A stretch of DNA of 12,558 nt from a virus. Below, one piece after another: positions 3,204 to 4,944 of the stretch. A model generated the notes under the pieces. The model searched no databases and was not told the DNA's origin. It was given only the letters and a program-made list of their open reading frames with translations. Numbering within the stretch: position 1 is the first letter of the stretch; every line of letters starts with the position of its first letter. Location of the stretch: the IMG/VR virus record IMGVR_UViG_3300044639_001767; one strand, written 5' to 3'. The translations under genes and the position numbers were made by a program.

Positions 3204-3488
3204 TTAGGCAACCATGCGCTGGTCACCATCACCAGCATCACCAACTTCCTCAGCCACAGTTTCAGCAGTGGGGATGGTGAGTCCGCGACGTGCAGCAAGA
3301 TCAGCTGCCATCACAGTCTTGAAGGCATCTTCCTTGGTCATCTCGCCAGGCAGCTCGACGAACTCAATGTTCTCGAAGCCTTCCTTGGTCATGGTCTTGA
3401 TGCGTGCATCAGCACGACCATTGGTAAAGCGAAACTTGTCCTTGCCCTTGTAGATGGCAGCGCCAATGTGAGTGAAAGTCTTGGCCAT
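3204..3488 (-). CDS. Hypothetical protein of 94 aa. The KGKDKFRFTNGRAD segment is faintly YegP/DUF1508-like.
   Basis: AGAGGAG lies about 10 nt upstream of the ATG. The composition is protein-like. Similarity to known families is weak and from memory only. Confidence 0.6.
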   Translation of the reverse strand: MAKTFTHIGAAIYKGKDKFRFTNGRADARIKTMTKEGFENIEFVELPGEMTKEDAFKTVMAADLAARRGLTIPTAETVAEEVGDAGDGDQRMVA

Positions 3489-3528
3489 AGCTGTTGTTCT
3501 CCTCTGTTTTGAATCAGCTTATGTCATC

Positions 3529-3556
3529 AATATAGCATCTGACTCTGATCAGTCAA
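3529..3556 (-). promoter_or_regulatory. Sigma70-like promoter for the 94-aa gene: -35 TTGACT (3556..3551), 16-nt spacer, -10 TATATT (3534..3529).
   Basis: Read directly. It is the divergent partner of the + strand promoter at 3601-3628. Confidence 0.45.
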
Positions 3557-3600
3557 TGGGATTTTTTGCCAAAATAACTGATTAAACCCCTAATTGATTG

Positions 3601-3628
3601 TTGACATTTTTGCGCCTGGTGCTATTAT
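3601..3628 (+). promoter_or_regulatory. Strong sigma70-like promoter: -35 TTGACA (3601-3606), 16-nt spacer, extended -10 TGcTATTAT (3620-3628). The predicted transcription start is about 3635-3636, at the A of the PTH2 start codon, giving a leaderless mRNA.
   Basis: Consensus hexamers read directly. The ATG at 3636 lies 8 nt after the -10 hexamer and there is no Shine-Dalgarno motif between them. Confidence 0.5.
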
Positions 3629-3635
3629 CAGGTTT

Positions 3636-4061
3636 ATGAAAAAGAATTCACCCGTTTACGCATATGTTTTGATGAGAAATGATCTGGCCAGCCTGGGCGC
3701 AGGCAAGGCAGCAGCACATGCTCATCATGCAGGAACAAGAATGACCTACCATGTACGCAAGCATGGCACCAGGGCACAAAAAGATGTGCTCAACACCTGG
3801 GAACAGGAATGTGAGGGTGTGGGCACCACCATCGTGTTGAGTTGCGATGAAGAAACCATGAAGTGGTGTGTGGCAGAAATTGAAAAACTGCGAGATCAGG
3901 GTTGCAGTGCAGGTGTGTGGCGTGACCCCACCTATCCCAGCACCACAGAGCGTGGGTTCTGTTTGATGGCAGTGGATGTGTGTGCCTGGGTTCTGGGCAG
4001 CAAGGACGATCTTTCACCTATCCTCAGCGACCTGCCTCTCATGAACAATTGTGCATGGTAA
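3636..4061 (+). CDS. pth2: Peptidyl-tRNA hydrolase of the PTH2 (archaeal/eukaryotic) family, 141 aa.
   Basis: VYAYVLMRNDLASLGAGKAAAHAHHA aligns by eye with PTH2 [25 protein letters not shown]. The downstream pattern (VLNTWEQ..G..IVL..DEE..., DPTYP) also fits PTH2 topology. The ATG at 3636 is preferred over the TTG at 3594, which overlaps the promoter. Confidence 0.65.
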   Translation: MKKNSPVYAYVLMRNDLASLGAGKAAAHAHHAGTRMTYHVRKHGTRAQKDVLNTWEQECEGVGTTIVLSCDEETMKWCVAEIEKLRDQGCSAGVWRDPTYPSTTERGFCLMAVDVCAWVLGSKDDLSPILSDLPLMNNCAW

Positions 4062-4064
4062 CAC

Positions 4065-4274
4065 ATGCAAGTGACCTTGACTCTGTCAAAAGAACAAATT
4101 CATAAATGGCAACAAGTGTGGACTCACAACGGATTTAGAGACTGGAATGATGCTGGTAGTTGGCTCTGGTGTAATTACCGAGCCAATGCCTATCGTGATC
4201 GTGGAGGCATGCTGTTTGTTTTTGAAACGCAAGAAGAACAAACGTCATTTTTGCTCTCCTGGCTGTCTGACTAA
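4065..4274 (+). CDS. Hypothetical small protein of 69 aa, possibly translationally coupled to PTH2 (4-nt gap).
   Basis: Trp-rich, protein-like ORF starting 4 nt after the PTH2 stop. There is no clear ribosome-binding site. Confidence 0.35.
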   Translation: MQVTLTLSKEQIHKWQQVWTHNGFRDWNDAGSWLWCNYRANAYRDRGGMLFVFETQEEQTSFLLSWLSD

Positions 4275-4503: not shown

Positions 4504-4944
4504 CTACAAAGTATATTCAAAATTTTGCGTGTGTGAATTTATTTGCAGCAACTGAGCACCATTTTTGATGTGAAATTTGGTTGCCATGTCCGTGAGAGGA
4601 CTGAGAGTCACCAATCTTTGGATGTGACCCAAATTAGTCTTCACATGATTTCTCGCATGAACAATCATGGCCTGACCTCCACCTTTTTCAATAGCCCAGA
4701 TGGTGTATAACACTGCCACTGTGGCATCAGTGCCCTGATAGCTGAACAATTGTTGCTCTTGAGTAGGCACTGTATCTGTGAATGCCACACATACCACACT
4801 CTGCGGCTCATCCTGCTCGTTTAACAGCACCCAAACACTGGCATTATTGCCCACTCGCTGATGTGGGGGAATATGAGGACGAACAGGATCTTCTTTGATC
4901 AATTCCATCAAGGGATCGTGGATATCCTCTAGAGTTACCAGCAT
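4504..4944 (-). CDS. Hypothetical protein of 146 aa, possibly a GNAT-fold acetyltransferase (weak). The start is moved to the ATG at 4944.
   Basis: AGGAG lies 8 nt upstream of the ATG at 4942-4944 (MLVTLEDI...). AIEKGGGQAMI...KFHIKNGAQ loosely resembles GNAT motif A and the C-terminal region. This is not confirmed. Confidence 0.55.
   Translation of the reverse strand: MLVTLEDIHDPLMELIKEDPVRPHIPPHQRVGNNASVWVLLNEQDEPQSVVCVAFTDTVPTQEQQLFSYQGTDATVAVLYTIWAIEKGGGQAMIVHARNHVKTNLGHIQRLVTLSPLTDMATKFHIKNGAQLLQINSHTQNFEYTL

Follow-up and report, generated by a model that had tools for sequence, protein, structure and literature searches.

A short rightward transcription unit was examined in a 12,558-nucleotide (nt) stretch of DNA from an uncultivated tailed phage (IMG/VR record IMGVR_UViG_3300044639_001767), referred to below as the window. 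Its first gene encodes a 141-amino-acid (aa) protein of the PTH2 (peptidyl-tRNA hydrolase) superfamily, and the promoter of this gene lies so close to the ATG that the transcript is best read as leaderless. We consider it reasonably probable that the whole chain holds, from a leaderless sigma-70 transcript beginning at the AUG to a PTH2-fold hydrolase that would free tRNA during infection. The open reading frame (ORF), the domain and fold of its product, the promoter geometry, and the conservation of these features are supported directly. New in this work are the comparative evidence for leaderless expression, its recurrence within the lineage, a corrected start codon, and a DPTYP subfamily of PTH2-like proteins that lacks Thr90. 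The elements in question are the following:

3601..3606, + strand: -35 hexamer TTGACA of the rightward promoter, with the TTG invariant in 13/13 loci
3620..3628, + strand: extended -10 element TGcTATTAT, with TG at 3620-3621 and the hexamer TATTAT at 3623-3628, after a 16-nt spacer
3629..3635, + strand: discriminator caggttt, 7 nt, between the -10 element and the ATG, leaving no room for a Shine-Dalgarno sequence
3636..4061, + strand: PTH2-like gene, 141 aa plus a TAA stop codon (4059-4061), with the ATG at 3636-3638

RESULTS

Promoter geometry at the PTH2-like gene

An earlier sequence-only reading of the window had described a promoter TTGACA-16-TGcTATTAT without a ribosome-binding site. This arrangement can be read directly in the sequence, and its geometry was found to be conserved. 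In a consensus scan, the site was the joint best of the window with 11/12 matches and the sole 11/12 site with a TG extension. For comparison, related loci (L numbers below) were gathered from IMG/VR, JGI metagenomes, and exact-protein look-ups, and the promoters of 13 distinct syntenic loci with 51 to 95% protein identity to the window were aligned. In 13/13 of them, a -35/-10 pair was present with the -10 hexamer ending 5 to 7 nt before the homologous ATG. The TA of the -10 hexamer was likewise invariant (13/13), and TGn preceded the hexamer in 7/13. The discriminator, 7 nt long in the window and 5 to 6 nt in the relatives, was unrelated in sequence from locus to locus. Mean pairwise identity among the 13 loci was 0.72 for the hexamers, compared with 0.30 in the spacer and 0.37 in the discriminator. 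By this comparison, the bases between the elements appear nearly randomized, while the elements themselves and their distance to the ATG have been retained.

The start codon was ATG in all 13 loci, none of which has room for a Shine-Dalgarno sequence. At other genes of the window, described below, AAGGAG or GAGGAG sites lie 7 to 9 nt upstream of the start, namely at the HTH_39 gene, the 94-aa gene, and the homospermidine synthase gene, and also at the genes for the proteins resembling major vault protein (MVP; ATG 9090) and malonyl-CoA decarboxylase (MCD; ATG 4944). Because the -35/-10 pairs are kept at 5 to 7 nt from the ATG in 13 loci whose flanking bases have diverged, a leaderless transcript is well supported as the best reading of the PTH2-like gene promoter. 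Where six bases separate a -10 element from an ATG, the canonical +1 position is the A of the ATG. With the seven bases found in the window, the putative transcription start would be either T3635, giving a 1-nt leader, or A3636. The earlier placement of the start at the A of the ATG is thus upheld by the 13 loci as far as leaderless transcription is concerned, with one base of latitude in the window itself.

Folding of the 5'-terminal 60 nt of the predicted transcript gave a minimum free energy of -3.4 kcal/mol, compared with -7.56 ± 2.16 for shuffled sequences (z +1.93), and 199/200 shuffles folded at least as well; a weakly structured 5' end of this kind is, though, common in ordinary 5' coding regions too. 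The consensus scan found no other + strand promoter in the 147-nt intergenic region. A search of the same region for operator-like repeats returned one modest inverted repeat only, 11 nt long and 91% complementary (3521-3531 and 3597-3607, arms ATGTCATCAAT and ATTGTTGACAT). Its arms overlap the start region of the leftward promoter and the -35 hexamer of the rightward promoter, and it could be a candidate operator pair for the neighboring HTH_39 protein.

The start codon

The public gene call for this locus (protein P0001, 155 aa) begins at an in-frame TTG at position 3594, and the ORF lister likewise returned 3594-4061. The exact 155-aa call comprises 21 member sequences on 27 contigs. In an alignment of 30 relatives, however, M1 (ATG 3636) was aligned and invariant in all of them, and most gene calls begin there. 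The N-terminal extensions carried by P0001, P0005, P0009, P0015, P0023, and P0026 were mutually unrelated in this alignment, and the 14-residue extension from TTG 3594 was not conserved and is impossible in several relatives. At L016, L017, L021, and L022, no in-frame start candidate other than the ATG was found 5' to the conserved motif. Codons 8 to 10 (Y8-A9-Y10) vary synonymously among loci, and this stretch is therefore translated. On this comparative evidence, ATG 3636 is taken as the true start, correcting the TTG 3594 of the gene callers.

The invariant Met at position 13 was also considered as a start and rejected, given that residues 7 to 14 form the core strand beta1 in the structural model, that residues 1 to 12 are conserved with synonymous codon changes, and that nothing resembling a Shine-Dalgarno sequence precedes M13. 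Public gene calls run upstream to non-ATG starts, giving proteins of 155 aa (P0001) and 187 aa (P0009), presumably because the real ATG has no ribosome-binding site. Leaderless genes thus carry a systematic risk of misannotation in gene calling.

Putative leaderless starts elsewhere in the lineage

The gap between a strong promoter and the first ATG was tallied for ORFs of at least 60 aa, covering 384 ORFs in 17 loci. The histogram showed a sharp peak at 5 to 7 nt (5, 11, and 3, for a sum of 19), with most other bins holding 0 or 1, and a second, broad group at 28 to 45 nt that corresponds to ordinary leaders. Apart from the PTH2-like genes themselves, the peak includes the genes for a dCMP deaminase (L022:743) and a PP-loop/TilS-like protein (L022:6892), both of whose starts match independent gene calls. 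Further members are a 139-aa gene at L001:5101 and several genes in L006, L008, L010, and L011, among them those starting at L006:2056/4961, L011:1618/3956, and L008:1598/3118. From this tally, leaderless starts look like a recurrent and routine practice of the phage lineage rather than a stress device.

Several of the -10 regions have the sequence GCTATAAC or GCTATACC, which resembles GCTANAWC, the -10 consensus of Alphaproteobacteria. Together with the cultured-phage homologues described below, these regions give hints of an alphaproteobacterial host for the window phage, without establishing it.

The mechanism of leaderless mRNA expression is already known, also from phages. Established examples include lambda cI transcribed from PRM, 375 mRNAs of Caulobacter crescentus, and 171 of S. 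meliloti. With these the window shares a -10 element a few bases from the AUG, the lack of a Shine-Dalgarno sequence, and an unstructured 5' end, features listed in PMC9031893 and PMC4117421; it differs from them in that its start is deduced from geometry and conservation. The sequence-only reading had further suggested that a leaderless transcript would be translated efficiently under stress. The occurrence of the same geometry at other genes argues against this stress-specific gloss, which is also unnecessary in view of Caulobacter, where 9.6% of coding sequences lack a leader and yet match leadered ones in translation efficiency during normal growth (PMC4117421).

Membership in the PTH2 superfamily

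A Pfam search gave one match for the window protein, PTH2 (PF01981), with an E value of 8.8e-7 and a score of 29.6 bits, the gathering cut-off being 23, so that the hidden Markov model (HMM) check bore out the PTH2 domain named in the sequence-only reading. The protein was assigned in PHROGs to phrog_1866, a family whose function is unassigned there, and in a sequence search of the PDB it weakly matched human Bit1/PTRH2 and the Pth2 of S. solfataricus. An AlphaFold2 model based on the 30 relatives (predicted local distance difference test score [pLDDT] 92.4; predicted TM-score [pTM] 0.86) was then compared with solved structures using Foldseek. The top 13 PDB matches were all Pth2 chains (3erj, 2zv3, 1xty, 1wn2, 1rlk, and 1q7s), with E values of 1e-5 to 5e-4, a probability of 1.00, and target-normalized TM-scores of 0.67 to 0.85, and beyond them only unrelated matches were seen, at E values of ∼1e-2. 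Alignment of the family with five solved Pth2 proteins by hhalign extended over nearly the full length, with a probability of 92.8 and an E value of 4e-7; the human Pth2 reference sequence was verified to be 100% identical to 1q7s. Membership in the PTH2 superfamily is secure by both HMM and fold.

The window protein has the alpha/beta fold of the archaeal and eukaryotic Pth2 proteins (S. solfataricus 1XTY; human PTRH2/Bit1 1Q7S), a four-stranded mixed sheet flanked by helices, and shares with them the N-terminal motif RxDL...GK...H, the Lys/Asp pair, and the C-terminal L-x-L. It differs from them in its low identity (17 to 22%), in its length (141 aa compared with ∼115 to 120), and in being encoded by a phage of a bacterium. 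By sequence, it is best classed as a divergent member of the superfamily and not as an orthologue or equivalog of archaeal Pth2. The earlier designation of a PTH2-type hydrolase therefore stands at the level of the superfamily; it does not extend to equivalence, and the residue corresponding to Thr90 is replaced. A search of GTDB (185,579 species genomes) with peptide patterns of the close clade gave no relative.

The DPTYP subfamily

In S. solfataricus Pth2, Lys18, Asp86, and Thr90 are reportedly critical, with Thr90 the proposed nucleophile; Fromant and colleagues are said to have described this in 2005, together with the location of Lys18 in the GKGK motif that opens helix 1 and of Asp86 in the beta3-beta4 hairpin, salt-bridged to Lys18. 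In the hhalign alignment, K24 of the window protein fell on Lys18 and D97 on Asp86. Residues 97 to 101 form the motif DPTYP, which replaces the canonical DAGxTQ. D97 was invariant in both alignments made, that of the 30 relatives and that of 60 diverse subfamily members. Among the latter, G23, H31, and G63 were invariant as well, and R14, D16, K24, P98, Y100, and P101 were at least 90% conserved, whereas the nearby T99 was conserved in less than 90%.

An exhaustive profile search recovered 1077 cluster representatives (50% identity) with an E value of ≤0.001, 688 of them at ≤1e-10. The DPTYP subfamily thus appears from its sequences to be large, divergent, and mostly metagenomic; look-ups of its clusters gave metagenomic entries only. 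A Pfam scan of ten longer subfamily members revealed no informative N-terminal fusion domain.

PTH2-like genes of other phages

Homologues were found by tblastn in 30 cultured-phage records, at 33 to 42% identity, with many annotated as peptidyl- or aminoacyl-tRNA hydrolase. All of these phages infect Alphaproteobacteria (Caulobacter, Brevundimonas, Sinorhizobium, Erythrobacter, and Ruegeria). The structure collection BFVD contains PTH2-fold proteins of phiN3, Myrna, Atu_ph07, RaK2, VH7D, S-CBWM1, and several giant viruses, with phiN3 the best viral structure match (E value 6.6e-12; TM-score 0.84 to 0.85). In the literature, PTH2 was traced through jumbo phages of groups 2 and 3, with a proposed role in ribosome rescue or tRNA recycling (Iyer et al. 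2021; PMC7824862), and the Pth2 of Klebsiella phage RaK2 was noted in 2013 (PMC3622015). A PTH2-like gene in a phage of a bacterium is therefore already described and annotated and is not unusual there; on this point the sequence-only reading was overstated.

The PTH2-like proteins of cultured phages, including Sinorhizobium phiN3/phiM12, the Caulobacter/Brevundimonas jumbo phages, and Erythrobacter L02, belong to the same DPTYP-type subfamily; RaK2, Myrna, and Atu_ph07 are also listed among these relatives. The genes of the cultured phages overlap or abut upstream genes in operons and have no promoter of their own, whereas those of the window clade stand first in their unit and appear leaderless. 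A megablast search with the whole window against cultured phages gave no nucleotide match. Near the homologues of phiN3 (L025) and Erythrobacter phage vB_EliS-L02 (L027), genes for nicotinamide mononucleotide (NMN) adenylyltransferase and nicotinate phosphoribosyltransferase lie within 1 to 3 kb, and phiN3 additionally has a macro-domain (Appr-1-p processing) gene nearby. These surroundings suggest an NAD-salvage, anti-defense-like neighborhood.

Genomic neighborhood

Around the PTH2-like gene, the following features were identified in the window:

5-2185, + strand: tail-spike/fiber gene, cut by the window edge
3204-3488, - strand: 94-aa gene with a GAGGAG ribosome-binding site
3529..3556, - strand: divergent leftward promoter TTGACT-16-TATATT with TG, driving the 94-aa gene
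4065..4274, + strand: conserved 69-aa ORF, beginning 3 nt past the PTH2-like stop codon, without a Shine-Dalgarno sequence
4443-4407, - strand: tRNA(CUA) remnant, first 35 nt only, broken within the anticodon loop
4503-4474, - strand: tRNA(CUA) promoter, intact, with TTGACA at 4503-4498 and AATAAT at 4479-4474
4504-4944, - strand: MCD-like protein, 146 aa, resembling the GNAT-fold malonyl-CoA decarboxylase catalytic domain, with an FH-x-x-NGA motif
6601-9090, - strand: MVP-like protein, 829 aa, with a major-vault-protein shoulder (E 3.7e-19) and Vault_3 repeats
9131-9733, - strand: protein with a TilS N-terminal domain (lysidine synthetase, PP-loop), 200 aa, NCBIfam domain at 122.5 bits against a cut-off of 93.6
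10969-12372, - strand: homospermidine synthase-like protein with saccharopine dehydrogenase domains

The 69-aa ORF at 4065-4274 was the only clearly real ORF downstream of the PTH2-like gene in the window. By tblastn, it was found on the same strand downstream of the PTH2-like gene in nine related loci, at 33 to 94% identity, a count that excludes the near-identical copies L012-L015. As it abuts the stop codon without a Shine-Dalgarno sequence, its translation is probably coupled. The divergent arrangement was syntenic in L012-L021 (at least ten loci), with the PTH2-like gene always heading a series of small + strand ORFs. The divergent cluster consists of three genes, one for a product of 72-94 aa, one for an HTH_39 winged-helix protein, and one for a product of 138 aa. 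The position of the rightward operon and its sigma-70 promoter suggest that it is probably expressed early.

The tail-spike gene contains dozens of degenerate NTAVG-type repeats and a C-terminal endosialidase-chaperone (Peptidase_S74) domain, and the window also has a gene for an HNH homing endonuclease, along with others of the kind commonly seen in large phages. The MCD-like gene was syntenic with the PTH2-like gene in most relatives. Its product was considered as a tRNA-acetylating partner and rejected, as it resembles malonyl-CoA decarboxylase only and no similarity to TacT-type toxins was detected. The 829-aa MVP-like protein is present in L012-L015 and had no PHROG or PADLOC match. The closest matches of the homospermidine synthase are hss of Ralstonia phage RSL1 (41% identity) and that of Achromobacter phage Motura (33%); relatives also encode ferritin, superoxide dismutase, and S-adenosylmethionine (AdoMet) decarboxylase. 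Neither the PTH2-like gene nor its neighbors had a PADLOC hit, and Rfam found no RNA family in the window.

tRNA genes

In the relatives, an amber-suppressor tRNA(CUA) and a TilS-domain protein are encoded within a few kilobases of the PTH2-like gene, and a tRNA(CAU) in two loci. The tRNA(CUA) was intact, at 71 to 76 nt, in ten loci (L001, L003, L004, L005, and L016-L021), where it lies immediately 3' of the MCD-like gene, has its own sigma-70 promoter, and mostly has an encoded CCA. In the window, the remnant is followed by an unrelated 8-bp hairpin, and the 3' half of the tRNA was not found anywhere in the window. No sign of TAG recoding was seen in the loci with the suppressor tRNA: reading TAG as sense raised coding coverage no more than did the other stop codons, and TAG still terminates ORFs in the fragments of relatives that were examined. 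Judged by its domain content, the 200-aa TilS-domain protein is a phage enzyme of tRNA modification that lacks the C-terminal domains for tRNA binding. An 88-nt tRNA with the anticodon CAU, present in L001 and L021, is a possible substrate of the TilS-domain protein.

DISCUSSION

In the mechanism proposed here, the host sigma-70 RNA polymerase would read the short rightward operon from the near-consensus extended -10 promoter. The first transcribed base would be the A of the ATG or its immediate predecessor, yielding an mRNA without a leader or Shine-Dalgarno sequence, and 70S ribosomes with initiator tRNA would bind the 5'-terminal AUG directly. The 69-aa ORF would probably be translated by coupling. 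The PTH2-like product would hydrolyze the ester bond of peptidyl- or N-acyl-aminoacyl-tRNA, and tRNA would thereby be freed during infection. The inferred parts of this scheme are where transcription starts, what the enzyme does, how early it is made, and which biological role it has. As to the role, ribosome rescue or the countering of tRNA-acetylating toxins would be a plausible idea, for which the one relevant finding is that bacterial Pth reverses TacT acetylation (PMC9241777).

A number of observations weigh against this scheme. On the transcriptional side, the window contained 24 promoter-like sites compared with 19.8 expected from shuffles, and such sites are not enriched as a class; a single match is therefore weak alone and needs independent support. 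These counts also favor the explanation that the promoter match arose by chance and that the ORF is expressed otherwise. Such a coincidence is scarcely credible for an 11/12 match with a TG extension that holds its place next to the ATG across 13 diverged loci with randomized flanks, in a lineage with a gap peak at 5 to 7 nt. Four relatives have a weak -35 and a -10 hexamer without the usual T at its end (TATACC, TATAAC, and TATACG), and the transcription start is placed solely by geometry and conservation. Distant homologues have Shine-Dalgarno leaders or lie inside operons (L009, L023, L024, phiN3, and Kikimora, with L023 and L024 at ∼50% identity and L009 still more distant), and leaderless expression would therefore be a trait of the clade and not a requirement of the protein family. 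On the side of the enzyme, the PF01981 match spans only profile positions 4 to 83 of 115, and the NCBIfam equivalogs NF003314 and TIGR00283 were matched at 20.6 bits against a cut-off of 126 and at 19.2 against 82, respectively. The hhalign alignment paired Thr90 of the DAGxT motif with Pro101, which is near-invariant, and the beta3-beta4 hairpin exceeds that of the solved Pth2 proteins by ∼7 residues. Because Thr90 is replaced and the hairpin lengthened, catalysis or substrate may differ; from sequence, hydrolase activity is nevertheless likely, with a specificity that may not be that of Pth2. A search of the literature found no experimental study of any phage PTH2.

The expression of the gene could also be explained without a leaderless transcript, either by a start at TTG 3594 or by a transcript initiated further upstream whose ATG is used without a Shine-Dalgarno sequence. 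The database calls of 155 aa from TTG 3594 (P0001) agree with the former, and initiation independent of Shine-Dalgarno sequences on leadered mRNAs, as seen in many bacteria (PMC4117421), would allow the latter. Both are nonetheless improbable. The 14-residue extension is unconserved, no in-frame start candidate precedes the ATG in some relatives, and TTG 3594 itself lies upstream of the -35 hexamer and has no ribosome-binding site of its own. A longer transcript would have no evident source, as the scan found no other + strand promoter between the divergent genes (147 nt) and the closest genes upstream lie on the opposite strand, and the conservation of hexamers at a fixed 5 to 7 nt from the ATG would be unexpected. 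The main rival reading concerns the product, which may have kept the PTH2 fold and changed its job, serving host takeover or acting as a specialized tRNA-directed esterase instead of in general peptidyl-tRNA recycling. Candidate activities would be hydrolysis of initiator fMet-tRNA or aminoacyl-tRNA, leading to host shutdown, or removal of adducts from the tRNA 3' end. The active-site differences (Pro101 at Thr90, DPTYP for DAGxTQ, and the lengthened hairpin) and scores far under the equivalog cut-offs are in favor of such a change, as are the place of the gene at the head of a putatively early operon of small ORFs and the surroundings of the phiN3 and Erythrobacter phage L02 homologues, which suggest counter-defense. 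S. solfataricus Pth2 is also said, in work by Fromant and colleagues from 2003, to accept E. coli formyl-Met-tRNAfMet, unlike bacterial Pth. In contrast, conservation of the Lys/Asp pair, of RxDL, and of His31 fits the ordinary reaction, and no fusion partner or neighbor indicates another substrate, with no Pfam domain in the extensions and no PADLOC hit. A changed job is on balance possible but rather unlikely, and the ordinary hydrolysis of peptidyl- or N-acyl-aminoacyl-tRNA from a leaderless message remains the preferred reading.

More speculatively, the DPTYP-type PTH2 proteins might form a distinct phage branch belonging to an early translation-reprogramming or counter-defense toolkit, in which obligatory leaderless synthesis would bypass a 30S/Shine-Dalgarno initiation perturbed by the phage or by host defenses. 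The suppressor tRNA, the TilS-domain protein, and the tRNA(CAU) encoded near the gene in relatives would belong to the same setting. The substrate could then be a particular blocked or mischarged tRNA, such as toxin-acetylated aminoacyl-tRNA, initiator tRNA, or drop-off products of stop-codon suppression. We regard this broader proposal as unlikely.

The findings overturn no current knowledge and are modest in weight. If the inference of leaderless transcription is true, 13 diverged promoters fused to the same AUG would provide a natural test case for leaderless expression in phages and in the host. The distance from the -10 element to the ATG could serve as a clue in host prediction, and it could be used to correct gene callers, which now return 155 or 187 aa in place of ∼141 to 149. 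The DPTYP subfamily, for its part, bears on whether "PTH2" annotations in phages are justified and on whether Thr90 is dispensable for catalysis.

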